Shown here piece by piece: positions 7,528 through 43,735 of a DNA stretch of 64,000 nt. Below the pieces are notes generated by a model. The model did no database searches, had not been told where the DNA came from, and worked only from the letters and a program-made list of their open reading frames with translations. Origin of the DNA: Patescibacteria group bacterium (GTDB lineage Bacteria > Patescibacteriota > Minisyncoccia > Minisyncoccales > JAHCRE01); NCBI GenBank assembly GCA_020148145.1, contig JAHCRE010000016.1, positions 4,456 to 68,455 of the forward strand. Reading direction: 5' to 3'. Position numbers and translations under genes: made by a program. Each line of letters opens with the position of its first letter. Within the stretch, counting starts at the first letter, position 1.

Positions 7528-8091
7528 ATGAATCCACATATTTCTCTTGCTAAATTGGCGGTTGAAACTTATATCAAGGAAGGGAAAATAATTTCTCCGC
7601 CTGATGATTTGCCAGCAGAATTTTTTAAAAAAAAGGCAGGAACTTTTGTGACCATTGAGAAAAGTGGAGATTTAAGGGGTTGTATTGGGACTTATTTGCC
7701 TCTTCGGCAGAATATTGCTGAAGAAATAATCAAAAATGCCATTGCGGCAGCTACTGAAGATTATCGATTTGGGCTAATCAAAGAAGAAGAGCTTCTCCAC
7801 CTCTCTTTTACTGTTTACATTTTAAATGAACCGGAATTGGTTAAAAATACTTCTGAGTTAGATTCAAAGAAATATGGAATAATTGTCAAAACCGTACCTA
7901 TTACCAAGTCGAATGGTACTGATGTAGTTTTTAATGGTCATGTTCCTCACAAGAGCGGACTTTTACTTCCTGATTTAGATGGCGTGGATACTGTAGAAAA
8001 ACAAATTTCTATTGCCTGCCAAAAAGGGGGAATTGATCCGAAATCTGAGAAAATTTTAATTTATAAATTTACAGTAGAGAAATATCAATAA
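7528..8091 (+). CDS. amrA: AMMECR1-domain protein (AmmeMemoRadiSam system protein A)
   Basis: 187 aa. Hallmark AGTFVTIEKSGDLRGCIGT motif. Confidence 0.85.
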   Translation: MNPHISLAKLAVETYIKEGKIISPPDDLPAEFFKKKAGTFVTIEKSGDLRGCIGTYLPLRQNIAEEIIKNAIAAATEDYRFGLIKEEELLHLSFTVYILNEPELVKNTSELDSKKYGIIVKTVPITKSNGTDVVFNGHVPHKSGLLLPDLDGVDTVEKQISIACQKGGIDPKSEKILIYKFTVEKYQ

Positions 8092-9748: not shown

Positions 9749-11149
9749 CTATGTTAACGCTCGTTTAACGATTTCTCGGGCTACGATAATGCCTGAAACT
9801 GAAGCCTGAATCAGACCTCTAGTGACACCTGCACCGTCTCCGATTGCGAAGAGATTGCTAATTTTAGTTTCTAAGTGGTTGCTGAGCTCTAAGCGAGCGG
9901 TGTAAAACTTTACTTCGACGCCATATAAGAGGGTATCTTTAGAATTTAACCCTGGCGCAATGTGGTCTAATACTTGAAGCATCTCACGTATGTCAGCTAA
10001 GTAGCGATACGGCAGAACGAAACTAAGGTCACCTGGTGTGGCATTTTTGAGTGTGGGCACAACTAAACTGCGGTTAATTCTTGCTTCGGTACTACGTCTT
10101 CCAGCTTCTAAATCGCCTAGACGTTGAATAATTATGCCACCGCTTAAGAGGTTTGTGAGTCTGGCGATATATTTGCCGTAAGCGATTGGCTCGTGGAATG
10201 GCTCTGTAAACCTTGTGCTAACTAATATGGCAAAGTTTGTGTTCTCTGTTTTATGTTCAGTGTAGCCTTGCCCGTTGACTGTTATGATACCTTCGTATGA
10301 TTCGGTTATGACTTCGCCTCTAGGACAGACACAGAATGTGCGTACGCGGTCGTCGAACGATTTAGAGAAATACACAAATTTAGGTTCGTACAAGACTTCG
10401 GTTAATTCATCCATGACCGAAGCTAAAACCTCGACTCGCACACCAATATCAACTGGGTTGTTAAGTGCTTTGAGACCAACTGTCTGGGCTTCGGTTGTGA
10501 GCCATTCGGCTCCGCTTCTGCCGGGCGCAACAATAACGTATTTGCTTCGAACCTTCTCACCTTTTATGGTTTCCACACCTTCAACCTTACCGTTCTCGAC
10601 CAGTAGACGTTTAACTGCTCTACTTGTCTGGATTTTTACCCTCTCTTTTAAGTGACGGTGCATATTACGTAGGACCCGGGCGCATTGTTCTGTACCCATG
10701 TGGCGGATTTTTTGTTGTATGAGTTTGAATCCAACGAACGCGGCTTTGTGCTTGATTTCCTCTACTTTGTCTTGGTCTGTTCCATAAACATGTTCGGGTG
10801 CACCGAATTGACAGTAGATGCTGTCAACATAATCGATGTAGTTAGCTAATTCCTCTTTAGTTATGTAGTCGGTTAGCCAGCCGCCAACCTCGGTTGAGAG
10901 ATCAAGTTTGCCGTCACTAAAGGCGCCAGCTCCTCCCCAGCCCTGCAATAGCGTGCAAGGGCTACAATTGACGCATTCGAGGCCTCGGCTAGCTGGACAT
11001 TTGCGCTTTTCTAAGTCGGGTCCCTTATCAAGCATGAGGATTCTTAGCTGTGTGTTTTCGTTTTTAGTGAGTTCCAGCGCGGAGAATATACCAGCAGGGC
11101 CTGCACCTACAATGATGACATCATAAGGTTGAGACAAAACAAATTCCAC
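9749..11149 (-). CDS. FAD-dependent oxidoreductase (uncharacterised FAD dehydrogenase type)
   Basis: 466 aa. N-terminal dinucleotide fold YDVIIVGAGPAGIFSALEL and C-terminal GDGAG motif. Higher GC than the flanks. Confidence 0.7.
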   Translation of the reverse strand: MEFVLSQPYDVIIVGAGPAGIFSALELTKNENTQLRILMLDKGPDLEKRKCPASRGLECVNCSPCTLLQGWGGAGAFSDGKLDLSTEVGGWLTDYITKEELANYIDYVDSIYCQFGAPEHVYGTDQDKVEEIKHKAAFVGFKLIQQKIRHMGTEQCARVLRNMHRHLKERVKIQTSRAVKRLLVENGKVEGVETIKGEKVRSKYVIVAPGRSGAEWLTTEAQTVGLKALNNPVDIGVRVEVLASVMDELTEVLYEPKFVYFSKSFDDRVRTFCVCPRGEVITESYEGIITVNGQGYTEHKTENTNFAILVSTRFTEPFHEPIAYGKYIARLTNLLSGGIIIQRLGDLEAGRRSTEARINRSLVVPTLKNATPGDLSFVLPYRYLADIREMLQVLDHIAPGLNSKDTLLYGVEVKFYTARLELSNHLETKISNLFAIGDGAGVTRGLIQASVSGIIVAREIVKRALT

Positions 11150-28913: not shown

Positions 28914-29345
28914 AGTTACAGATTAAATCACTCGGAACAATACATGAAATAGGTTACAAGATTTCGGGAAAAACTCGGCATCTCGTTACGTATTTGATGG
29001 AAAAGCCTCACTTTATTACAAGATTTCGGGAAACCCAGGAATCGTCGTGGATTACAAAATTTCGGAAAGCAATAACTATGGAGATTACAAAGATTTCGAA
29101 GAATCACCAGCCTCACGGATTACAAGGTTTTGGAAAATTGCGATGAAGTATATATCAAGGCATTACAAGATTTCGGGGAATCGTTTCCTATGTGTGCATA
29201 ATTACAAGATTTCGGGAAATCGGATAATAGATGAGCGTCCATTACAAAGTCGCCGTAAGCACTGTTACGAGGTATACTGGGTAACGCAATTACAAGATTT
29301 CTGAGATTTTGCGCGGTAGTTTCGAATTACAAGATTTCGGAGAAT
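28914..29345 (-). CRISPR. CRISPR-like mini-array A1 (about 11 units)
   Basis: Units start (plus coords) at 28952, 29014, 29050, 29083, 29118, 29161, 29200, 29240 (degenerate), 29288 and 29325. Consensus ATTACAAGATTTCGGRRAAT. Variant repeat GTTACAGATTAAATCAC at 28914. Unit periods mostly 33-48 bp (62 bp at the degenerate distal end). Confidence 0.6.
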
Positions 29346-29394
29346 TTTAGGCATCAGCATTTTGGAGGATCGCTTCAAGCTTCGGTGACCGTGA

Positions 29395-29508
29395 GTTATT
29401 TGCTTTTCAACGAACTACTTATCTCCTCCATATTCCCTGGGGAATACTTTATGAGATATTATGGGCATGTAACATACCCGGGTATGGAAAAGCCTTGCTT
29501 TTCCATCC
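29395..29508 (-). ncRNA. conserved structured leader RNA L1 (tracr/scout-like candidate)
   Basis: Three hairpins on the minus strand: AUGGAAAAGC-AAG-GCUUUUCCAU (29484-29506), GGGUAUG-UUA-CAUGCCC (29463-29479) and UAUUCC-CCAG-GGAAUA (29431-29446). Then an invariant GGAGGAGAUAAGUAGUUCGUUGA. Paralogs L2-L6. Confidence 0.6.
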
Positions 29509-29514
29509 TTTTTA

Positions 29515-29580: not shown

Positions 29581-29613
29581 TGAGTTTAAAGAATAAGGAA
29601 GCTACATGAAAGT

Positions 29614-30315
29614 GTTACAGATTGAATCGCTTTCAACCCGGCATAATTTTTATCGAATTACGAGATTTCGGAGAATTTCAGGGGTAAACAGATTTGCTTG
29701 ATTACAAGATTTTAGAAAATCTGAGACGATTTATTGTTACTGCACGATGATACTCTTATACTCTGCCATTACAAGATTTTGGAGCTTAGGGAAATGTTCA
29801 TTACAAGATTTCGGAGAATCGTTTCCTATGTGTGCATAATTACAAGATTTTGGGAAATCGGACATGTGGTCTTCTTATTACAAGATTTCGTCGCATTTCC
29901 AGTTACAGATTAAATCGCTTTTTGTGGCAATGATAACTGGCGATGGGGTTACAGGGTTACAAGATTTCGGACACTTTGCTAATGGCGTTACAAAGTCGGA
30001 ATCAGCATGTAGTTACAAGATTGACATTAGGTAGATATTACAAGATCTCAGAAGAAATCCATTATCAAATTACAAAGATTTCGGAGAATAGCACATACTG
30101 AAGGTCCTTTAATTACAAGACTTCGGGAGACGACAGTTAGTCCTGGAATCGTTACCTTTTTAATCTTTTGGCGATTGCGAAAACGATGGACAGGTATTAC
30201 AAGATTTCAGCACAGTGAAAACAACAGTGAGAACAGTTACGCGCTGGATTATTCTCACAGATTACGAGGCTTCGGGAAATCATTAGGGTTCTCTAATTAC
30301 GAGATTTCGGATAAA
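29614..30315 (-). CRISPR. CRISPR-like mini-array A2 (about 17 units)
   Basis: Main repeat at 29657, 29701, 29768, 29800, 29839, 29877, 29956, 30037, 30069, 30112, 30196, 30261 and 30296. Degenerate copies at 29986 and 30012. Variant repeat GTTACAGATTRAATCGCTT at 29614 and 29902. Confidence 0.6.
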
Positions 30316-30379
30316 GCCTTTGAATATGGTTACTTCGCACCTTAAACCGGCGTTACCCTGTCATCAGCGTGACAACTTA

Positions 30380-30502
30380 TTACTGACTTCTTTGTTTGTC
30401 AACGAACTACTTATCTCCTCCATATTCTTTTGGGAATACTTTGGAAGACATTATGGGCATGTAACATACCCTTGGATAGAAAAGCCTTGCCTTTCTATCC
30501 GC
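30380..30502 (-). ncRNA. conserved structured leader RNA L2
   Basis: Paralog of L1 with the same three hairpins (GGAUAGAAAGGCAAGGCUUUUCUAUCC; GGGUAUGUUACAUGCCC; UAUUC-CCAAAA-GAAUA) and GGAGGAGAUAAGUAGUUCGUUGACAAAC. Confidence 0.6.
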
Positions 30503-30508
30503 TGACTA

Positions 30509-30537
30509 AGATTAGCAGAGGTATGCTTAGTTGTCAA
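30509..30537 (-). promoter_or_regulatory. promoter of cassette A2
   Basis: Minus strand TTGACA (30532-30537), 17 bp, TAATCT (30509-30514). Confidence 0.6.
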
Positions 30538-30573: not shown

Positions 30574-32406
30574 TTAGGATTCTTTGGTTAAGAGTCGCAG
30601 TCCCTCCTCAAGGCATTCATCGAAAGGTGCTTCGAAACGTGCCCCTTCTAGCCACTCTGGTAAACCTCCTAAGACTCTGTTGAATTGCTTGGAAATAAAG
30701 AAGCACATTCCGATATCCTCTGCTGTTCGGATATTCCGACCTCTTACTTGTAGAGCCTTTACTGTAACTCGATATTTTATTAATCTCCAGCGCAATACTC
30801 CCCATCGTCTTTCCTCAAACTGTGATGCAGGATCCATTGGTCGTGGATATGGAGGTCTCAAGACCCAAATTACCGGAGCAATCTCTCTTGGTAAGTCGAT
30901 TCCTTCGCCGAATTGGGCTACTGTTCCAAGTAAGACATCGCCCTCACCTTCAATAAATCTCCTGGCAGCATCTTTCGCCTTTAATCCTGGTCCATAGGTC
31001 ATTATTTTGAAATCTTTGGAATGTCTTTCCAAAAATTTTAATCGCTCAGCTTCTGAGACAACGGTGATCAAAGATCGGAATTCCTTTTTCAGAAACTCAC
31101 GGCAACCTTTAGCAATTATGCTAAATGCTCGATTTTTTGCCCTAGCCAGTGCTCCTCTGCCTGGGTTAGCTTTCACTGCTAAATTCGGCGTATCGGTCGG
31201 TAGAAAGACTCTCGTATTTTCAATTGGGAAGGTTGATGTATAAACCTGGAAAGGAAAATCTATTCCTGTCTCAATGGCAAAGGTTTCTTTATCGCCTATC
31301 GTTGCCGAGTAAGCAATAATCCTTTCAATAGGCTCTAAAATTTTCAACCGAATCACCGGACTAACATAGAAGTGTCGAATACATAACTTACAGATTACTC
31401 TTGGCCCTCTCTTGCCCCTTTTCCTTCTCTTTTTCCTGTAGAACATAAAGACGTAATTCGATGGCTTCCGTGTTTCTGTACCTGTGGCATAGAATAATTC
31501 TTTGATATACCAGGGAATATGCCGAACAACTATTTCAAGGGTCTTCAAAGTTTTTCTATCTTTTTTTGGGTCTAAAATACCAAGTTCTAAGGCTTTATTG
31601 ATTGTCCCTCTAAGCTCTTTGGTATTTATTTCCTCGAGCAAAGAAATCAATCTTTTGATTTCATGGTCTGCTAAAAGCTCGGGTGGTTCCGTTGGTTTTA
31701 ATTTGGCAATCTTCATCATCTCTTCTAAGAATCTTTCCAGCAACCATTCTCTTCTAATCACTGATAATGCCTTTATCGCTCTTTTTAAGGTAAGGCCACT
31801 GATATCCCAAGAAAGAATCTGCCTTGTTACTTCGGCTAACCTATGAACTTCATCGATCACCAGTACCTTCGGTGGCGAAGCCTTGAATTTTTTCACGTAT
31901 AGCATGTGAGTGACAAGGTAAGCAATTGTGCAGACAATTATGTCTCCTTTCATTGCCCGGTGCTTTACCAAGAGATAAGGACAAGGCTCAACTCCTGGTT
32001 CTACTGTCTTGCCAGTGTCGAGATCTACCCTATGGGGACATTTTAACAATGAGCAAGGTGATTCTTCGGCTGTCACCTTTTCTCTTTTATCTTTGTAGAA
32101 AAGACAAGGATACTCATTCCTTCCATAGGCCTCTACCACTCCCTCTGGATACATTTTTTTGGCTTGTCTAACTAAAGTTTTGGTGGTGGTAGCGTAAATA
32201 ATTGGTTTTACCCCTATTTCCTTAAAGGCTTTTAAAGGAGTAACGCCAGTTGCTGTCTTTCCTCTTCCAGTTGGCATCTCGTGAAGACTTTTTTTGTGGT
32301 AGGCGATGAACTCTAGAGCGGCTCTCTGATCAGGCCTCATTTTCTTATGAGGGAAGCGTTTCTTAAACTCTTCAGACAGATGTTGCGGATGTTCCAGATG
32401 TTTCAT
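30574..32406 (-). CDS. XPD/DinG/Rad3-family SF2 helicase with Fe-S cluster domain, array-associated
   Basis: 610 aa.
- Q-like RPDQ.
- Motif I EMPTGRGKTA.
- Four Cys between motifs Ia and II (C101, C118, C123, C142; YGRNEYPC..SPCSLLKCPH..EPCPY).
- Motif II VLVIDEVH.
- Motif III YSATI.
- Motif V GTVAQFGEGIDLP.
- Motif VI QVRGRNIRTAEDIG.
Own SD AAAGAGGTGAA. Confidence 0.85.
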   Translation of the reverse strand: MKHLEHPQHLSEEFKKRFPHKKMRPDQRAALEFIAYHKKSLHEMPTGRGKTATGVTPLKAFKEIGVKPIIYATTTKTLVRQAKKMYPEGVVEAYGRNEYPCLFYKDKREKVTAEESPCSLLKCPHRVDLDTGKTVEPGVEPCPYLLVKHRAMKGDIIVCTIAYLVTHMLYVKKFKASPPKVLVIDEVHRLAEVTRQILSWDISGLTLKRAIKALSVIRREWLLERFLEEMMKIAKLKPTEPPELLADHEIKRLISLLEEINTKELRGTINKALELGILDPKKDRKTLKTLEIVVRHIPWYIKELFYATGTETRKPSNYVFMFYRKKRRKRGKRGPRVICKLCIRHFYVSPVIRLKILEPIERIIAYSATIGDKETFAIETGIDFPFQVYTSTFPIENTRVFLPTDTPNLAVKANPGRGALARAKNRAFSIIAKGCREFLKKEFRSLITVVSEAERLKFLERHSKDFKIMTYGPGLKAKDAARRFIEGEGDVLLGTVAQFGEGIDLPREIAPVIWVLRPPYPRPMDPASQFEERRWGVLRWRLIKYRVTVKALQVRGRNIRTAEDIGMCFFISKQFNRVLGGLPEWLEGARFEAPFDECLEEGLRLLTKES

Positions 32407-32488: not shown

Positions 32489-32510
32489 AAAAAAAAGGCG
32501 CAAAAGCGCC
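32489..32510 (-). terminator. intrinsic terminator after the Cas12/TnpB-like gene
   Basis: Minus strand GGCGC-TTTT-GCGCC + TTTTTTTT, overlapping the TAG stop. Confidence 0.75.
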
Positions 32511-34447
32511 TAGTTGGTTTTGGGTTCCTCCATTGAAACTAAAGCTATGGCTAGATTCGTGTTGGTATCCCTTCCACACTCACATGTAAGGCTTTTTCGA
32601 TCTTCGACTATCACTAAATTCTGCCAGGTTCCTCCAATTTCCTTTTCGCAATAAGGACAGACTGCCACTTGATTCGCATTAAATTCTCTCTCTTCCACAG
32701 GGAATCCCCGCATTTCCAATTTATATCCTATTCGAGCCCTAAAGATTGAGTCAATCCAGTATCGCAGTTTTCTATTTAGTTCTCGCCTTTCTATCTCTCC
32801 TCTTCTGTAAAGTCTCTTTTGGATGTTCAGTAAAATCACTTTACCCGGCATTGTCATCAAGTACTCAGCTATCCCTTTTGTCTCATTGTGCAAGACCCAC
32901 TTTATCTTCCTTGACTCTTTTAACCTTGGTTTCTTGAAATATCCCCGAGAAGCTTCTTTCCTTTGCTTGAAGTAGTAGTTCTTAATTGAGATTATTTCTT
33001 TGTGTCGGAAAAACCTCACTTTTCTTTGATCTTCTTTAATACTGAGTACACAGGTCGTCTCTAGACAATAGGCAATGATGTGCAACCAGCCCTGGTCTTC
33101 CTTTAAAGGGACTACCTTTGTTAAAGGAAAGATGAAGAAATATTCTTTCTTTTGTCCTTTCCCAATGTGACGGAATAACTCTGGATATCTCGTAGGGTCG
33201 CCAAAGACACGCTCAGCTTTATGATATTCCTCAATCCACCTGGTACCAATGATTAAACCTTCTTTTCTCTTGCCTCTTTCCCAAAGGCCAATGCTGATTT
33301 TCCAAAGACCTAGCTCAACCCTGATGAATTTGTACATTCCTTTTGAGTATTTCACCTTCGTTGTTGGAAAGCTTGGAATCCTATCTGGCCTTATTTTTCT
33401 GAATTCTCTATCTAGCTGACATTCTGGCCCCCAATCGTATTCTCTGTAGTTTTCGCATCCTTCGCAGATTGGCGTTGCTATCCTCTTTACAATCTCCGTA
33501 GTCTTTGCTTTTCCCTCCGAAATCATGACTTTCCTTCCGAGATTCACTCTCGTTCTTTTTAAGCGTTGGAGTTCCTCCTTTATCGTTTTCTTTTGCTTCC
33601 TATCCGTTGCAACTTTAAGAAATCCTTCTGCCTTTTTTATTTCTTGCTCAATGCTTCTGAGTATCTCTTTTTTAGCCTCAATTTTCCTCAATGTCCTCGA
33701 AGATATTTCCTTTGGCTTCTCTTGCAAAAGTTCATTGATTCCTCTTAACCTTTCTCTTCTTTTTTTTCTGTTTTTCTTTGTGATATCCTGGCCTAACCAA
33801 TAGAAGAGGAAGTGTCTAAAGGGCGAAATTAGGGCTCTTGTCTCTCGCCATTCATTTCTAATTTCTTGTATCTCCTGCGGTTCATCAACGGGTTCTTTTC
33901 CTATTCCGCTCTCTTTACATTCTTTGAATTTTCTCTGAAACTCATTTTTCTTTAAGATTTTTCCCCAGTTGTTGCTTAACCAAGCATTCATCATTGACTG
34001 GGCAGCAGTGAAGGCTAAATCGATGAAGGTCTTTAATGGAATCTTAAAGATTCTCTTTGCTTCATAGGCAACTTCTTGCCGGGCTATTTTCCCAAAAATA
34101 TAAGACCTTGCACAGGCAGAGCAATACTTTTGACCATCGAATTTTGATTCCATCACCAAATTCGTTTCTTTTTGGCAATTAGCGCAGACTCCTTTTTCTT
34201 TTGGAATGATGTAAAATCTCCTAAGTCTTTGAGAAAATCTTCGCATGCAAAACTCACCAGCCCTGCTAAACTCATCGATCAATCTCTCAAAGTCTTGCTC
34301 TGGAATTCCGGCTATTCTCAAAGGGATTCCAAGAGTCACTATATTGAATCTTGTCTGGCATTCCTCGCAAGCCATCGGATTTTTCTTTCCTGAAATCTTA
34401 ATTTCAACCTGGCATTCCGGATTCGGACATTTTACTTTTTTTACCAA
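32510..34447 (-). CDS. TnpB/Cas12-like (type V-like) RNA-guided effector candidate with apparently degenerate RuvC
   Basis: 645 aa. TTG start 7 nt after GGAGG.
- The C-terminal third matches the TnpB/Cas12 core: YWIDSIFRARIGYKLEMRGFPVEE (YK.E..G.V block), Zn finger CPYC..x19..CEC, and RuvC-III-like GRDTNTNLAIAL.
- The RuvC-I position reads IIAYCLETT (no GxDxG).
- The RuvC-II position reads VILLNIQ (no Glu).
- Three further Zn-ribbon-like Cys pairs lie in the N-terminal and central parts: CPNPEC..CEEC, CANC..CSAC and CEGC..C. Confidence 0.7.
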   Translation of the reverse strand: MVKKVKCPNPECQVEIKISGKKNPMACEECQTRFNIVTLGIPLRIAGIPEQDFERLIDEFSRAGEFCMRRFSQRLRRFYIIPKEKGVCANCQKETNLVMESKFDGQKYCSACARSYIFGKIARQEVAYEAKRIFKIPLKTFIDLAFTAAQSMMNAWLSNNWGKILKKNEFQRKFKECKESGIGKEPVDEPQEIQEIRNEWRETRALISPFRHFLFYWLGQDITKKNRKKRRERLRGINELLQEKPKEISSRTLRKIEAKKEILRSIEQEIKKAEGFLKVATDRKQKKTIKEELQRLKRTRVNLGRKVMISEGKAKTTEIVKRIATPICEGCENYREYDWGPECQLDREFRKIRPDRIPSFPTTKVKYSKGMYKFIRVELGLWKISIGLWERGKRKEGLIIGTRWIEEYHKAERVFGDPTRYPELFRHIGKGQKKEYFFIFPLTKVVPLKEDQGWLHIIAYCLETTCVLSIKEDQRKVRFFRHKEIISIKNYYFKQRKEASRGYFKKPRLKESRKIKWVLHNETKGIAEYLMTMPGKVILLNIQKRLYRRGEIERRELNRKLRYWIDSIFRARIGYKLEMRGFPVEEREFNANQVAVCPYCEKEIGGTWQNLVIVEDRKSLTCECGRDTNTNLAIALVSMEEPKTN

Positions 34448-34603
34448 ACTCTCACCTCCCGACCATTACGCCGCGTTTCATACCCATCCATTTCTTTGAT
34501 GGGCTTCTCCCCTTTACAATCCTTTTAGACTGCTTTAGAGAGATTTAGGCGGTGAAACACCACCCTTTGCACCCATCATCTAATTGTCAAGATGCTAACT
34601 TCA

Positions 34604-34632
34604 AATATAACAAAAAATGAAAATTTTGTCAA
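34604..34632 (-). promoter_or_regulatory. promoter of the Cas12/TnpB-like gene
   Basis: Minus strand TTGACA (34627-34632), 17 bp, TATATT (34604-34609). Leaves a 5' UTR of about 150 nt that contains a second TTGACA (34585-34590) and small hairpins. Confidence 0.65.
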
Positions 34633-34696: not shown

Positions 34697-34729
34697 TAAG
34701 GCTTAAAAGTATTATGACATGGGAATCTA

Positions 34730-35060
34730 ATTACAAATTCAAATGGACGGATTATTACTGTCATCCAAGCATTGTTACAGATTAAGTCGCTTCCAACTTG
34801 GCATAATTTTTATCGAATTACAAAATTTCGGAGGATCAGATTTCCAGCTATTACAAGATTTCGGAAGACCTCACCGACGATTGGAATTACAGGACTTCAG
34901 AGATGTGTATAATTACAAAATTTCGGAAAGTCACTAGGGTCAAATTGGTTACCTTTTTAAGCTTTTCGAAGACGATGGACAAGTATTACAAATGTCTGAA
35001 ATCTGCGGAAATTACAAGATTGCAGAGAATGGCTTCGACGGTTACAAGATTTCGGGAAAT
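34730..35060 (-). CRISPR. CRISPR-like mini-array A3 (about 9 units)
   Basis: Main repeat at 34817, 34850, 34886, 34912, 34985, 35011 and 35041. Degenerate copy at 34730. Variant repeat at 34774. The distal ~140 bp are nearly identical to the distal end of A6. Confidence 0.6.
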
Positions 35061-35136
35061 CGATGTATCATTGCACTTGTTACCTCTTTAGTCTTTTAGA
35101 TGAACGAGGCAGGTCGAGGAGTTAATCTTTTCCACC

Positions 35137-35260
35137 GAACAACACTGTCTTTTTGTTTTCAAAGAACTATTTACCTCCTCCATGGTCCCTGGGACCACTT
35201 TGAGAAATATTATGGGCATGTAACATACCCAGGTATAGAAAAGCCTTGCCTTTCTATCCA
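35137..35260 (-). ncRNA. conserved structured leader RNA L3
   Basis: Paralog of L1. Hairpin 3 is GGUCC-CAG-GGACC here versus UAUUCC..GGAAUA in L1, a compensatory change. Hairpin 1 is UAGAAAGGC-AAG-GCUUUUCUA. Confidence 0.6.
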
Positions 35261-35266
35261 TTTTTA

Positions 35267-35295
35267 AAAATAGCAAAAGAGAGATTCTTTGTCAA
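35267..35295 (-). promoter_or_regulatory. promoter of cassette A3
   Basis: Minus strand TTGACA (35290-35295), 17 bp, TATTTT (35267-35272). Confidence 0.55.
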
Positions 35296-35318: not shown

Positions 35319-35350
35319 TAAGTTTAAAGAACAATTCAAAATAATCCCAA

Positions 35351-35915
35351 GTTACAAAGATGTGATTCAATATTCAATCTGTTCTTTATTACTTCACGAA
35401 CGGAGGAAAGTATGAGTTACAGTAATATTCTTTTTTTGCACCAACAGCCTTTTGTTACAGATTAAATCGCTTCCAACCTGGCATGATTCTTATCGAATTA
35501 CAAGATTTCGGAGAATCATCGGTGTGCTTCTATTACAAGGTCTCGGCAAATCTTGGGCAATGGTAGTTGCATTACAAGATTTCTGAAAATCTATCTGCTT
35601 CATTACGATAGAGTTTCGCTAACAAAGTCTCGTTGTAATGTCCGGCGTTACATACTTGAAAGTGTGAAGTTACAGATTAAATCGCTTCCTCGGAGGCTTC
35701 AGATTACAAGATTTCGGAGAATGACACATATTGAGGATCCTTTAATTACAAGATTTCGGGAAATCGGACATGTGGTCTTCTTATTACAAAATTTCGGATT
35801 TGTTCGCCCTCGCCTCAATTACAAGATTTCGGAGAATCGTTCCAGTCTGGTCGGGCGGCATTACAAGATTTTGGGAGATTATCAGAGTATATCGTAATAT
35901 TACAATAGTCATTTA
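35351..35915 (-). CRISPR. CRISPR-like mini-array A4 (about 13 units)
   Basis: Main repeat at 35497, 35532, 35571, 35703, 35745, 35783, 35818 and 35860. Degenerate copies at 35351, 35602 and 35899. Variant repeat at 35454 and 35669. Spacers between clean repeats are 15, 19, 11, 22, 18, about 15-19 and 22 nt. Confidence 0.65.
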
Positions 35916-35997
35916 GGAACATCGACGTTACTCTACATCTTAAACCAGCGTTACTCTTGAATAAACGGGATAGGTCGAAGAGTTAATCTTTTTCATT

Positions 35998-36122
35998 GAA
36001 CAACACTGTATCCTCTGTTTTTCAAAGAACTATTTACCTCCTCCATGGTCCCTGGGACCACTTTGAGAGATATTATGGGCATGTAACCTACCCAGGCATA
36101 GAAAAGCTTTACCTTTCTATCC
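35998..36122 (-). ncRNA. conserved structured leader RNA L4
   Basis: Paralog of L3 with the same three hairpins and GGAGGAGGUAAAUAGUUCUUUGAAAAAC. Confidence 0.6.
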
Positions 36123-36128
36123 ATTTTA

Positions 36129-36193: not shown

Positions 36194-36226
36194 CTGAGGT
36201 TAAAGAACAATTTGGTAAATGTATCC

Positions 36227-36642
36227 GTTACAAGGGAAAAGCTCGTTTTAAATTACTGCACTACCGATGAGTAAGTGGTTGGGCGAAAGGTTACAGGTTA
36301 CGGCAACACCTCGAAGCACTGTTACAGATTAAATCGCTTTTTTCTTTTGTTTCCTATTATATCTTGACGCCAATTACAAGATTTCGGAAATACCGCGGGC
36401 TCTTATTACAAGATTTCGGATTTGTTCGCCCTCGCCTCAATTACAAGATTTCGGTGAATCGGATATCCCTTATTACAAGATTTCGGAAAATAGCACTAAT
36501 AAGCGAAGCTGGGTTACAAAATTTCGGAAAATGATTGTCAGAGTATTACAAGCTTCATAGGTTGGGACCCGGGGACCGTATTACAAGATTTCGAAAGATC
36601 GCAATGAAATATATCTCGAGGCATTACAAAATTTCAGGAAAT
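36227..36642 (-). CRISPR. CRISPR-like mini-array A5 (about 10 units)
   Basis: Main repeat at 36373, 36405, 36440, 36472, 36513, 36545, 36580 and 36623. Degenerate copy at 36227. Variant repeat at 36321. Confidence 0.6.
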
Positions 36643-36710
36643 AGTATATGACCAATGTTACTTTTCTAAGCTTTGGGGCCAAAGAGATGAAACGTTACCT
36701 CTTTTCCATC

Positions 36711-36835
36711 GAACAACACTGTATCCTCTGTTTGTCAAAGAACTATTTACCTCCTCCATGGTCTCTGGGACCACTTTGTGAGATATTATGGGCATGTAAC
36801 ATACCCAGAGATAGAAAAGCCTTGCCCTTCTATCC
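36711..36835 (-). ncRNA. conserved structured leader RNA L5
   Basis: Paralog of L3/L4. The tail reads GGAGGAGGUAAAUAGUUCUUUGACAAAC. Confidence 0.6.
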
Positions 36836-36841
36836 CTTTTA

Positions 36842-36908: not shown

Positions 36909-36941
36909 TAAGGCTTAAAAATATTATGACATGGGAATCTA

Positions 36942-37500
36942 ATTACAAATTCAAATGGACGGATTATTACTGTCATCCAAGCATTGTTACAGATTAAATC
37001 GCTTTCAACCTGGCATAATTTTTATCGAATTACAAAATTTCGGATTTGTTCGCCCTCGCCTCAATTACAAGATTTCGGGAGATTAAAGATAAAAGTCGTT
37101 GTCTACGAGTTCGATGAAATTACATGAAACATTTTCAGACTCATGGTGTTACTAGGCTACTTGAATCAGCTTGAATTACAAGATTTCGGAGGATCAACCA
37201 ATTGGCGGCATATTACAAGATTTCGGAAGATCGCTCGATCAAATTACCCCAACGAGTCTTCAAATTACAAGATTTCGTCGTATTTCCAGTTACAGATTAA
37301 ATTGCTTCCTCGGAGACTTCAGATTACAAGATTTCGGATAATGGAAGGTGGTTACTTTTGACAACAGCAAATAAACGAGTTCGCATTACAAAATTTTGGA
37401 GAATCCACGTGTCACAAACCATGTTATCGATCAGTTACAGGGGTGAGGAATTACAAGATCTCGGAATTCTCATTGAATGGGAATTACATGATGTTTTGAC
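36942..37500 (-). CRISPR. CRISPR-like mini-array A6 (about 13 units)
   Basis: Main repeat at 37029, 37064, 37175, 37212, 37264, 37323, 37385 and 37450. Degenerate copies at 36942, 37119 and 37483. Variant repeat at 36986 and 37289. Confidence 0.6.
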
Positions 37501-37504
37501 TTAT

Positions 37505-37626
37505 ATTACTGACTTCTTCGCTTGTCAAAGAACTATTTACCTCCTCCATATTCTTGAGGAATACTTCGGTAGATATTATGGGCATGTAACATACCCGTGG
37601 ATAGAAAGGTATACCTTTCTATCCGC
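37505..37626 (-). ncRNA. conserved structured leader RNA L6
   Basis: Paralog of L2. Hairpin 1 is a perfect 11-bp stem GGAUAGAAAGG-UAUA-CCUUUCUAUCC. Hairpin 3 is UAUUC-CUCAA-GAAUA. Confidence 0.6.
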
Positions 37627-37632
37627 TGATTA

Positions 37633-37661
37633 AGATTAGCAGAGACATATTCATTTGTCAA
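37633..37661 (-). promoter_or_regulatory. promoter of cassette A6
   Basis: Minus strand TTGACA (37656-37661), 17 bp, TAATCT (37633-37638). Confidence 0.6.
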
Positions 37662-37853: not shown

Positions 37854-38474
37854 TCATTTAGTTTCTTGAGTTATTGATTTTGGATTTCCACAGATAATAG
37901 TTGAGATTACTGACAGTCCTGAACGTTCTATTTCTTGTCTGTTCTTAAGTAGACTCTCTGGTTTATGGCAGATGGTATACGCGTTTACTGGTAATCCTAA
38001 GCGTTTTAATTTTCGTTTGTTTTTAAGTAGACTCTCTGGTCTGCAGCAGATAGTAGTTGCATTTACTGATAGTCCTAGGCGTCTCAGTTCCTGTCTTTTT
38101 TTAAGCAGGTTTCCTGGAATCAAGGCTATAGTTGTTGAAGTTACTGGCAACCCTAAGCGTTTTAATTCTCTTAATCTCCCTGGGTTTCTTAGAGCTATTT
38201 TTTTGCTAAATCCTGCTTTTTCGAATTCCCTGATTAAGGAATGCATAAATTTGTTTATCTCTGAGGGATCAAATTTAAATAAGTATTCACCCGCTGCCTC
38301 ATGTTTAGCAATAATGCTAGCGAATTGACTCTCAATACCTCTAATTTCTAGTTTATGCCTTAACCATTTCCAGGGCCCTTTCCTTTTATCTGAACTGAAG
38401 ATTTCTAATAGTGTTTCTTCAATTTTAGGATTAACTTGAACGGCTTTATAGGCTATGCCTGGGTATGGATTCAT
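37854..38474 (-). CDS. helical-repeat protein with four to five 26-aa mTERF-like repeats
   Basis: 206 aa. The C-terminal half is made of tandem units GL[PS]V..TI...P..LLK....L.RL. Examples: GLPVTSTTIALIPGNLLKKRQELRRL, GLSVNATTICCRPESLLKNKRKLKRL, GLPVNAYTICHKPESLLKNRQEIERS. Terminator hairpin at 37810-37835. Confidence 0.55.
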   Translation of the reverse strand: MNPYPGIAYKAVQVNPKIEETLLEIFSSDKRKGPWKWLRHKLEIRGIESQFASIIAKHEAAGEYLFKFDPSEINKFMHSLIREFEKAGFSKKIALRNPGRLRELKRLGLPVTSTTIALIPGNLLKKRQELRRLGLSVNATTICCRPESLLKNKRKLKRLGLPVNAYTICHKPESLLKNRQEIERSGLSVISTIICGNPKSITQETK

Positions 38475-41675: not shown

Positions 41676-42665
41676 TTACGATTTCATTATATCATATAAT
41701 AAAGTTTTGTCAATAGTTATCTTGAAATAAAAAGAGAGCGAATTAAATTCGCTCTTATTTTCTGGGATTTCCAAATTCAACTTTTCTTTCAAATCTTTGT
41801 AGCGATTCCTGACTGTAACTTCAGTAATGTCAACAGCATCGGCAAAGTCTTTTTGTGTCCTTTTCTCATTATTTTGCAAACAAGCAATATATAAAACGGC
41901 ACAAGCTATACCCCGAGGACCCCTACCAGAAGTAAGACGTTTTTCTCGGGCCTGGTGAAGAATTCTTATGGCTAATCCTTGAGTTTCTCCAGAGATATAG
42001 AGTATTTCAGCAATCTTTGAAATATAGTCGACTGGATTAAGAATAGGCATTGTAATATTAAGTCCTTTAAGTAAAAGTCGGTAACAGTGACCGATTTCTT
42101 TTTTTGATACTAAACTGGCTTTGGCAATTTCTTGGAGGGCTCTAAGGGTTCCAGTCCTTCGGCAGGCTGCATAAAGGGCGGCAGCAGCAATAGCAATAAT
42201 TGATCTACCGCGAACCAGGCCTTCTTTTAAGGCCTTGCGATAAATAACCGCTGCTTCTTTTTGGACTGGCTTTGGAATGTTAAGCCTATTTGAAAGACGA
42301 TCAAGCTCTTCCATTGCCTTGGCTAAATTTCTCTGGATTGCTGAGTGGTATCTGGAACGTATTTGCCATTTTCTTAGACGCCACATTTGGGACTTAGTGC
42401 CTCTGGGAAGTTTTTTTCCGAAAGCATCATAATCTATTGGACTCATAGTAGTCGGTAAACCTTTATCATGAATCAAAAGAGATTCTGGCGCTCCAGCCCG
42501 GGCCCTTTTCTCTTTTTCTTCTTGAGTAAAAGCTCGCCAATCACGTCCTCTATCAATTATTGGCCTTATGACAAAACCGCAATTCCCGCAAACAATTTCG
42601 CCCAAATCATCATCACGAATAAGATTTTGGCTCCCGCATTCTGGACATTTTTCAACTAATTCCAT
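41676..42665 (-). CDS. archaeal-type transcription initiation factor TFB/TFIIB homolog
   Basis: 329 aa. Zn ribbon CPECGS..CGNCGFVI. B-reader/linker RDWRAF..GAPESLLIHDKGLPT. RLRKWQIR. Two cyclin-fold repeats. C-terminal TEVTVRNRYKDL. Driven by TTGACA-17-TATTAT and SD AAGGAGGTGAGAAA. Confidence 0.85.
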   Translation of the reverse strand: MELVEKCPECGSQNLIRDDDLGEIVCGNCGFVIRPIIDRGRDWRAFTQEEKEKRARAGAPESLLIHDKGLPTTMSPIDYDAFGKKLPRGTKSQMWRLRKWQIRSRYHSAIQRNLAKAMEELDRLSNRLNIPKPVQKEAAVIYRKALKEGLVRGRSIIAIAAAALYAACRRTGTLRALQEIAKASLVSKKEIGHCYRLLLKGLNITMPILNPVDYISKIAEILYISGETQGLAIRILHQAREKRLTSGRGPRGIACAVLYIACLQNNEKRTQKDFADAVDITEVTVRNRYKDLKEKLNLEIPENKSEFNSLSFYFKITIDKTLLYDIMKS

Positions 42666-42823: not shown

Positions 42824-43735
42824 TCAAATCGAAATTATAAAGAGCAACCTTTCCGCTAACTCCTTATATCTATTTCTTATCGTAACTTCGGTTACTTGGG
42901 CAATTTCAGCAATATCTTTTTGAGTGTTCCTTTCACCAGTTAATACTGATGCTATATAACTGGAGGCAGCAGCTATTCCTGTTGGGCCTCTTCCCGATGT
43001 GAGTCTCAGTTCTTTTGCTACAACAAGAATTTTATGAGCAATTTCTTCAACCTTTCCCTGCATAGTTAGTTGGTTGGAAAACTTGGTTATATATTGGCTA
43101 GGTTTTATTGGTGGAATAAAGTAATCAAGCTCTTTAACAAGAAATCGATATCTACTCCCTACTTCTTTTTTATCAACATTAGAAGCTTGAGCAACTTCAT
43201 TAAGAGTTCGTGCAAGTCCACATTTTCTACAGGCTATATATATAGCAGCAGCAGTTATACTTTGAACAGATCTACCCCTAACAAGTCCTTTTTTAGCTGC
43301 TTTTCTATAAATAACAGAAGCAGTTTCTAGAGCATTTTTTGGTAAGTTGAGACTATTAGCTATTTTAGAAATTTTAGGTAAAGCAAAGGCTAAATTTCTT
43401 TCTGGAGCATTTGAAATCCTTATTCTTTTTTGCCATTTCCTTAATCTATGAATCTGAGCTTTTTGTTCAGGGGTTAATTTTGTTCCGAAAACATCGCTAT
43501 CACGCCAATCTATCAATGTAGATAATCCTTTATCATGAATTGTCTGAGTTAGAGGTGCTCCAACTCTTACGCGTTTTGCTCTTTGCTCGTCGTCAAAAGC
43601 CCGCCATTCAGCTCCTCTGTCTACTATTCGGCTTATGACAAAACCGCAATTCCCACAAACAACTTCACCTAATGAATCGTAATCATAAATAAGATTTGGG
43701 CTCCCACATTCTGGACATTTATCAGTTAATCCCAT
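42824..43735 (-). CDS. archaeal-type transcription initiation factor TFB/TFIIB homolog (second copy)
   Basis: 303 aa. CPECGS..CGNCGFVISR..GAEWRAFDDEQRAKRVRVGAPLTQTIHDKGLST, RLRKWQKR, two cyclin repeats, TEVTIRNRYKEL. Confidence 0.9.
   Translation of the reverse strand: MGLTDKCPECGSPNLIYDYDSLGEVVCGNCGFVISRIVDRGAEWRAFDDEQRAKRVRVGAPLTQTIHDKGLSTLIDWRDSDVFGTKLTPEQKAQIHRLRKWQKRIRISNAPERNLAFALPKISKIANSLNLPKNALETASVIYRKAAKKGLVRGRSVQSITAAAIYIACRKCGLARTLNEVAQASNVDKKEVGSRYRFLVKELDYFIPPIKPSQYITKFSNQLTMQGKVEEIAHKILVVAKELRLTSGRGPTGIAAASSYIASVLTGERNTQKDIAEIAQVTEVTIRNRYKELAERLLFIISI

Follow-up and report, generated by a model that had tools for sequence, protein, structure and literature searches.

Several described systems resemble the element reported here in one respect or another. 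In the guides of Cas12f (type V-F) effectors, base pairs join the last 5-7 nucleotides (nt) of the repeat to a loop inside the scaffold RNA (PMC11246509). The scoutRNA of Cas12d lies upstream of the CRISPR array, runs in the same direction, and the spacers are 17-19 nt long (bioRxiv 10.1101/2023.12.12.571249). In a clade of nuclease-dead Cas12f derivatives (dCas12f) with sigma-E as partner, a trans-activating CRISPR RNA (tracrRNA) was fused with half of a repeat and then duplicated into omega-RNA-like arrays (PMC10691335). Here we analyse a stretch of 64,000 nt from a Patescibacteria group bacterium (contig JAHCRE010000016.1, positions 4,456 to 68,455), called the window below and numbered from its own first letter. 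It carries six paralogous leader modules, L1 to L6, one of which, L3 (35137..35295, minus strand), is the feature under study. Each module is probably a gene for a tracrRNA- or omega-RNA-like scaffold of a Cas12f-like effector. This reading is supported because three lines of evidence that do not depend on the six paralogues agree: the structure is kept in homologous loci, a scaffold loop co-varies with the repeats, and a neighbouring gene encodes a Cas12f-like protein. The proposal of a preliminary description of this DNA, that the modules specify a functional tracr- or scout-like RNA and not a passive leader, is thereby supported.

The six modules lie on the minus strand between 28.9 and 37.7 kilobases (kb) of the window and share one design: a TTGACA box, 17 base pairs (bp), an extended -10 element, a folded RNA of ~100 nt and, after it, an array of irregular make-up that an intrinsic terminator closes. 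All six that had been listed before were found at their coordinates. L1 (29395..29543) comprises the -35 box TTGACA (29543-29538), the extended -10, the scaffold core (29412-29510) and a tail; L2 occupies 30380..30537 with its model core at 30404-30502, and the core of L3 lies at 35164-35261. In the covariance model described below these three score 111, 107 and 117 bits, respectively. L4 (35998..36157, core 36027-36124) and L5 (36711..36870, core 36740-36837) were delimited by the six-copy alignment and the covariance model, and L6 occupies 37505..37661 (core 37530-37626). In the six-copy alignment the mean column identity is 78% across ~190 nt and 89% across the 99-nt core.

As described before, the TTGACA box is invariant and stands 17 bp from TACCCT (L1), TAATCT (L2 and L6), TATTTT (L3) or TACCTT (L4 and L5). 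An invariant TG precedes all of these hexamers and makes an extended -10, TGCTAnnnT, so the weak -10 hexamers become more plausible. Since a generic promoter scan of the region gave a site count not above that of shuffled sequence, the promoter call rests on the six-fold conservation. A second TTGACA, which had been noticed in the leader tails of L2 and L6, is indeed there but occurs in L5 as well, the other three copies having TTGAAA. The suggestion that it acts as an internal promoter parting leader from array found no support: it is found in three of the six copies, a -10-like hexamer stands at the right distance only in L6, and none was found in the homologous loci.

Single-sequence folds of the leaders gave helices P1 and P2 and a two-tier P3, the outer helix of which (AUAUCUC/GGAGGAGAU) encloses the inner hairpin 3. 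On the minus strand of L3 these correspond to 35257-35248 with 35244-35235 (P1), 35230-35226 with 35218-35214 (stem of P2), 35209-35203 with 35178-35172 (outer P3) and 35198-35192 with 35188-35182 (inner P3). For hairpin 2 the better reading is a stem of 5 bp (GGGUA/UGCCC) that carries the 7-nt loop UGUUACA, which in L3 lies at 35225-35219.

Changes in the P2 loop go together with changes at the 3' terminus of its cognate repeats in all loci that allowed the two to be read. In the window arrays the loop (U)GUUACA stands against repeats ending in (U)GUAAY. The loci outside the window are numbered L001 to L015 and are distinct from the leaders L1 to L6; L001, L002, L006 and L007 are metagenomic. 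In L001 the loop is GGUUGCA (core GUUGCA/UGCAAC) and the repeats end in AAUGCAAC or GGCGUGCAAC, with 10-11 complementary nt. The loop AGUUUCA of L006 (core GUUUCA) is matched by the repeat end UGAAAC, the loop GGUUCCUC of L007 (core GUUCCU/AGGAAU) by GAGGAAU, and the loop AUGAAUC of a diverged scaffold in L005 by GAUUCAC. Two further scaffold copies, situated in the 5' untranslated region (5'UTR) of the effector gene, behave in the same way. The window copy has the loop GUUUCA, unlike the six array leaders of the same genome, and its partner, UGAAAC, 50 nt downstream, is changed to match; the L002 copy has the loop GUUACACG and the partner UGUGUAAC, and their pairing is predicted even in the minimum-free-energy fold. 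All four Watson-Crick combinations (A:U, G:C, U:A and C:G) are seen at the variable loop position, and the predicted pairing covers 5-8 bp in the seven scaffold/repeat pairs, up to 10-11 bp in L001. As far as sequences can tell, this is how a functional intermolecular or long-range helix is expected to look; the pattern matches the short repeat/anti-repeat pseudoknot of Cas12f guide RNAs, and we regard it as the decisive evidence that the modules encode scaffolds. Another candidate anti-repeat contact, between UUCUCC of the window repeat and GGAGGA of the outer P3 helix, was dropped, because UUCUCC is absent from the L001 repeats.

The same evidence bears on the idea that the modules are structured 5' cis elements of the array transcript, acting in protection from RNase, in processing or in attenuation, and not scaffolds of the effector. 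Their constant place as the 5'-terminal part of the array transcript, their stable fold, the lack of a long anti-repeat and the resemblance of P2 followed by UAAUAUUUCU in L3 to a weak terminator would all suit such an element. A stabiliser or attenuator would, however, have no reason to keep loop-repeat complementarity across four base combinations. Moreover, one scaffold of L005 stands alone, with a T-run end and no array, and the 5'UTR copies of the window and of L002 have a partner of their own, so we consider a cis element unlikely.

The co-variation reported earlier within the stems was confirmed in the six-copy alignment, both for hairpin 3 (UAUUCC/GGAAUA in L1 against GGUCC/GGACC in L3 to L5) and for hairpin 1 (AUGG/CCAU against AUAG/CUAU, with a different loop in L6). 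Transcription from the minus strand, argued before from G-U pairs, is likewise favoured: these pairs form on that strand only, and the sense strand folds better (z-scores from -4.2 to -6.5) than the antisense strand (-2.2). The GGAGGAG tail, described as invariant, is present in the window leaders, but it is not single-stranded, since it forms the 3' strand of the outer P3 helix, and its invariance does not extend to the family, because L006 has UAUCC/GGAUA there. It could be ruled out as the Shine-Dalgarno sequence of a peptide, being base-paired and co-varying with its partner strand.

A covariance model (R1) with 29 pairs was built from the six window copies and the fold structure. Outside these copies it matched three copies in L001 (E 3e-12 to 2e-6), two in L007 (E 4-6e-6), one in L002 (E 2e-5) in addition to a contig-truncated candidate (E 0.5), one in L006 (E 1e-3), a weaker one in L008 (E 0.012) and a new copy in the window itself (34498-34576, minus strand, E ~1e-4). 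The effectors of L001, L002, L006 and L007 are 43-74% identical to that of the window. In the resulting alignment of 14 sequences, which was fitted to the model and in which the six window copies are paralogues and therefore not independent events, 97.1% of the cells are in standard pairs, as compared with 78.9% in column shuffles and 38-57% when the partners were slid; double-sided changes occur at 23 of the 29 pairs, and none of 500 column shuffles reached the observed value by any measure. The hits in other loci, which had not been used for building the model, retain all four helices with changed sequences, and the structure is conserved between loci at a mean column identity of only ~66%. 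The element recurs in four other loci. Each locus has 3-7 scaffold copies. An extra 5' hairpin, P0, is present in L001, L006, L008 and the 5'UTR copies, the latter having no P1.

The new window copy is the seventh, diverged scaffold, situated in the 5'UTR of the effector gene (34448..34632, minus strand; loop GUUUCA). It has its own promoter, TTGACA-17-TATATT (34632-34604), and its partner UGAAAC (34480-34475) is followed by 27 nt that include a ribosome-binding site and lead to the start codon, TTG, at 34447. The effector mRNA leader amounts to a complete 'single guide', consisting of the scaffold and its own repeat end, in the window (34448-34632, minus strand), in L002 (285-440, plus strand) and in L007 (590-808, plus strand). 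In these leaders the position of the guide is taken by the ribosome-binding site and the start codon of the gene. This arrangement suggests that the effector represses itself, acting either on the translation of its mRNA or on the promoter-proximal DNA of its gene.

The arrays that follow the six leaders are 0.4-0.8 kb long and consist of irregular short repeats; in all six a GC-rich hairpin with a T run follows on the minus strand. A1, after L1, covers 28914..29394 (terminator 28893-28876), A2 29613..30379 (29581-29564), A3 34729..35136 (34704-34680), A4 35350..35997 (35319-35302), A5 36226..36710 (36195-36178) and A6 36941..37504 (36916-36892), all on the minus strand. The core of the repeat, (gauu)yyCCGAAAUCUUGUAAU, is no longer than ~15-20 nt, and there are a second repeat class, AAGCGAUUUAAUCUGUAAC, and several degenerate units. 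Allowing up to 2 mismatches, the window as a whole has 51 occurrences of GAAATCTTGTAAT, as compared with 5.9 expected, and 48 of them fall in the arrays. Essentially all units, those of A1 included, end in GUAAY, which was taken as the point of division, the minus strand being cut after each GTAAY; its density is 29.5/kb on the minus strand of the arrays, 1.2/kb on their plus strand and 1.6/kb outside the arrays. For the variable parts the median length is 21 nt (range 11-40), including 4-5 weakly conserved nt. Tandem Repeats Finder reported nothing in the arrays. The related-locus repeats of L009 end in ...GGAAUGCAAC, an end that the repeats of Cas14a also have. TIGR-Tas arrays were rejected as an explanation: a Nop-like domain is missing from the effector, and there is a single variable block per unit.

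Identical or slightly diverged 'spacers' are found in different arrays (29200/29838, 29876/35782, 35817/36439/37063 and 29161/36622), and the terminator-proximal units are the same in A2, A3, A4 and A6. Because variable parts recur in different arrays, some of them drifted, the comparison indicates that the array cassettes spread through duplication and drift and not through independent acquisition. One segment after GUAAU in A1 (AAAGTGAGGCTTTTCC, at 29014) equals the effector coding strand at 33022 (minus strand) in 15 of 16 positions, where ~0.14 such matches would be expected by chance; the match is no more than suggestive of self-targeting.

Could the modules be passive CRISPR leaders, that is, DNA-level promoter and spacer-integration signals that are paralogous merely through duplication of whole arrays? 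Paralogous arrays in one genome often have similar leaders, and the shared spacers do show cassette duplication. Nevertheless, the compensatory changes and the strand-specific G-U pairs act at the RNA level, and the structure outlasts the low identity between loci. No Cas1, Cas2 or Cas4 domain or gene, by which a canonical CRISPR leader would differ, was found among the open reading frames (ORFs) scanned at ~21.7-46.5 kb, about 10 kb on either side, and ordinary integration by Cas1-Cas2 would call for longer and more regular repeats. We therefore hold a passive leader to be very improbable.

The Cas12f-like effector is a protein of 645 amino acids (aa) encoded at 32510..34447 on the minus strand. 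The window protein alone gave no match in Pfam, and its profile matches to TnpB (TIGR01766, weak) and Cas12f were marginal. Since the search of the PDB with sequence profiles gave only zinc-ribbon noise, a fold search was needed. The AlphaFold2 model based on a 17-sequence alignment (predicted local distance difference test 88.7, predicted template modelling score 0.72) had as its best Foldseek matches in the PDB the Cas12f structures 8j3r, 8hr5, 7wju, 7c7l and 7l48 (E 4e-11 to 4e-8), with the names AsCas12f, CnCas12f1 and Un1Cas12f1; CasX, Cas12g and Cas12k came next. Among the 17 family members, 12 matched the PADLOC Cas12f model (best E 5e-11) and six the Pfam family Cas12f1-like_TNB. The protein is rare: a word-indexed search of 5.8 billion sequences yielded three proteins, and an exhaustive profile search of 1.84 billion representatives yielded 23 clusters at 50% identity.

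Of the three catalytic residues of RuvC, those at positions I and II are replaced in the effector and throughout its small family. When the 17-sequence alignment was compared with the secondary structure of the model, the RuvC beta-1 strand (W-L-H-I-I-A-Y; W.H..AY) was found to have no acidic residue, and the end of beta-4, LLN(I)QK, has N, H, G or K where E is expected. The motif III aspartate, D625 (CGRD.N..LAIA), is retained in most members, not in all. The D-E-D triad of an active RuvC is thus incomplete, and we infer that the effector is nuclease-dead. The family keeps its zinc fingers. Of the residues near the degenerate RuvC site, H456 and H520 never vary among the 17 members and H482 and E522 hardly do; together they might make up a rearranged catalytic site or one for RNA processing.

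The kinship of the effector with TnpB and Cas12f, including the weak TIGR01766 match, also bears on the notion that the modules are omega-RNAs, or remnants of them, of mobile TnpB elements of the IS200/IS605 type, whose former transposon ends would be the GUAAY ends; the plus-strand TTAC resembles a target site of the IS608 type. Against this, a single effector gene stands for seven scaffolds, there is no tnpA, and the scaffolds, instead of standing at the gene's 3' end, lie upstream of arrays or in the effector 5'UTR, and the single-guide layout is confined to the 5'UTR copies. The same organisation with DinG (see below) recurs on unrelated contigs. Furthermore, Rfam, in which the IS605-orfB RNA motifs are included, had no family for the leaders or arrays, either at gathering thresholds across the whole window or in E-value mode at 28.8-37.9 kb. 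A TnpB origin of this kind is hardly credible.

Next to the effector a DinG/XPD-family helicase of 610 aa is encoded (30574..32406, minus strand), with the motifs GRGKT and DEVH and four iron-sulphur cysteines. Its best match, over the full length, is the PADLOC typeIV_DinG model (8e-44), and an identical protein at NCBI is annotated as from Patescibacteria bacterium. A DinG-like helicase adjoins the effector in all three loci with enough context, namely the window, L001 (4e-44, gene order as in the window) and L005 (2e-32), where the gene order is reversed and a scaffold and a mini-array lie between the genes. In L005 the effector is 32% identical, and scaffold copies lie at 10090-10225 and 7530-7870 (plus strand); one is a lone copy with a terminal T run and no array, and a second heads the mini-array of three repeats between the DinG-like gene and the effector.

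The DinG homologues form a large family with at least 165 matches, mostly from Patescibacteria. In L013 (8457-10000) and L015 (7046-10000), the DinG homologues of which are 43-45% identical, neither a Cas12f-like gene nor a leader is present. There a conserved 226-aa protein without Pfam or PADLOC match is followed by 0.9-2.3 kb of non-coding DNA; the stretch of it that was read in L013 contains several short promoter-to-terminator units. This region may be another RNA-guided module with the same helicase. The 226-aa neighbour is absent from the window.

The sequence of events that we propose for the scaffolds is the following. The sigma-70-type promoter of each module would drive a transcript of scaffold and array, with the scaffold as its 5' end and the intrinsic terminator as its stop. 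The effector would bind the scaffold RNA after its transcription and processing. With its sequence (U)GUUACA, the P2 loop would serve as a short anti-repeat pairing with the last 5-7 nt, (U)GUAAY, of each repeat, and this pseudoknot would position the guide that starts directly after the repeat, as in Cas12f-type effectors; the half-repeats of ~20 nt and the variable segments of ~16-21 nt would constitute compact CRISPR RNA (crRNA) units. Once loaded, the apparently RuvC-dead effector would bind DNA without cutting it. By analogy with type IV-A, the adjacent DinG would be recruited by the effector complex and would supply the downstream effect, be it unwinding, removal of roadblocks or repression. 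As regards the first unit, use of the scaffold in cis fits the L2 and L6 leaders, the tails of which pass through a hairpin straight into ..CAGUAAU. The ratio of scaffolds to units in the window (6:~99) and the stand-alone L005 scaffold argue for some use in trans.

Several observations weigh against this reading of the modules as effector scaffolds. No long repeat/anti-repeat duplex was found in the window or in L001, either in leader-repeat duplex predictions or in folds of the tail with the first repeat, where nothing was conserved between the two, and 6 bp of contact by themselves are a weak basis for association in trans. Hairpin 2 of the window leaders has an alternative form of 7-8 bp closed round a UUA triloop, by which part of the anti-repeat would be buried. 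The generic scan scored two of the seven promoters, those of L3 and of the seventh copy. The arrays are irregular and their 'spacers' are duplicated between arrays; when 101 post-GUAAY segments were searched with 16-nt seeds for targets in the rest of the window, 5 matches with up to 2 mismatches were obtained as compared with ~3 expected, and in IMG/VR none of three long spacers was matched exactly. The loss of the RuvC site is deduced from an alignment and a model, and a rearranged catalytic site is possible. The dependence of the pair counts on the fitted alignment and on paralogues belongs here as well.

In comparison with the described systems, Cas12f is closest by effector and by the logic of the pseudoknot: the effector fold is nearest to Cas12f, and both have a multi-hairpin scaffold of ~100 nt or more. 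Here, however, the scaffold lies 5' of the array in the same transcript, has its own promoter and is present 3-7 times per locus; a long repeat/anti-repeat stem was not detected and the window repeats are cut to 15-20 nt; the conserved neighbour is a DinG helicase, and RuvC is apparently dead. The scoutRNA systems (V-C/V-D) come nearest in position and in having so short a contact, sharing also the direction and the short variable parts; the contact is 6 bp here, and the scoutRNA is reportedly complementary to the repeat over only a few nt. The effector, on the other hand, is not Cas12c/d-like, having its best fold and profile matches with Cas12f, and Cas12d systems have cas1 and regular 26-nt repeats, whereas many scaffold copies are present here.

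By evolutionary scenario the dCas12f/Sigma-TnpB clade is closest (PMC10691335). It likewise has a nuclease-dead Cas12f derivative, an array minimised to half repeats, a scaffold-half-repeat fusion that makes a natural single guide (here the 5'UTR copies) and a scaffold duplicated to address several sites. The clade has lost the zinc finger and RuvC-III, partners with sigma-E and has one guide per scaffold, while here the zinc fingers are kept, the partner is DinG and a multi-unit array follows each scaffold. Type IV-A is closest by the helicase partner, with a DinG-family helicase beside an effector without working nuclease and with no adaptation genes. It differs in that the effector here is a single class 2 protein and not a Csf1-3/Cas7 complex (no Csf or Cas7 family was found among the ORFs scanned at ~21.7-46.5 kb), and in that the guide here needs a separate scaffold RNA. 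The system is thus a full member of none of these, as it lacks the long stem and active RuvC of Cas12f, is not Cas12c/d, and has neither the sigma factor nor the Csf complex.

In the literature searched no description was found of Cas12, Cas12f or dCas12f paired with a DinG or CasDinG helicase. The broad surveys PMC10910872, PMC12669027 and PMC10691335, together with the wider literature searched, mention Cas12 with Cas3, UvrD, IscB, Mu and sigma-E, and none with DinG. The dCas12f-DinG system of Patescibacteria is apparently undescribed. Tentatively, it may represent a type V variant not described before, a hybrid of class 2 and type IV-like character with three features combined. First, a nuclease-dead Cas12f-like protein would use a promoter-proximal scaffold and half-repeat crRNAs and pass its target to DinG. 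Second, the effector would control its own synthesis via the scaffold in its mRNA leader, with its own ribosome-binding site as the 'guide'. Third, DinG may be an output module common to several RNA-guided systems of Patescibacteria, because its relatives adjoin a different protein, that of 226 aa, and small RNA-like units.

Further loci were scarce. In the GTDB representative genomes neither the effector (by a protein-pattern scan) nor the leader (by a DNA pattern) was found, the effector scan of IMG/VR gave no match, and a metagenome scan yielded one locus, L005. Most of the contigs bearing the family (L002 and L006 to L012 in general) are only 2-4 kb long, and in the L006 contig the ends, 1-29 and 2287-2315, are identical and lie within the scaffold. 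The repeated scaffold modules are probably where assemblies break off; this would make surveys overlook such loci and would explain why few of them could be read.

As to the other neighbours, a 206-aa ORF beside L6 (37854-38474, minus strand) has no family match and contains 2.8 copies of a 78-bp tandem repeat (37891-38105). It was considered, with a 178-aa ORF at a comparable place in L001, as a third conserved protein, but the two are unrelated. Two tandem full-length TFIIB/TFB-like genes lie at 41676-42665 and 42824-43735 on the minus strand (Pfam TFIIB 1e-44 and 3e-46, plus a zinc ribbon), in a context that is otherwise bacterial, with DnaX, an OmpR-type regulator and sigma-70-type promoters.

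If confirmed, the natural pairing of a dCas12f with a helicase would join the known exaptations of Cas12 (Tn7 and Mu transposases, sigma-E and Cas3), and a scaffold copy heading each array would be a third mode of scaffold supply. Similar systems are probably under-counted, because repeat finders miss such arrays. If the proposal is true, a 645-aa DNA-binding relative of Cas12f, with a repeat handle of 15-20 nt and guides of ~20 nt, would be suited to multiplexed targeting, and the code between loop and repeat end, GUUNCA with UGN'AAY, suggests that orthogonal sets of scaffold and guide could be designed. For the Patescibacteria, with their small genomes and few recognised defence systems, it would mean a compact RNA-guided system.

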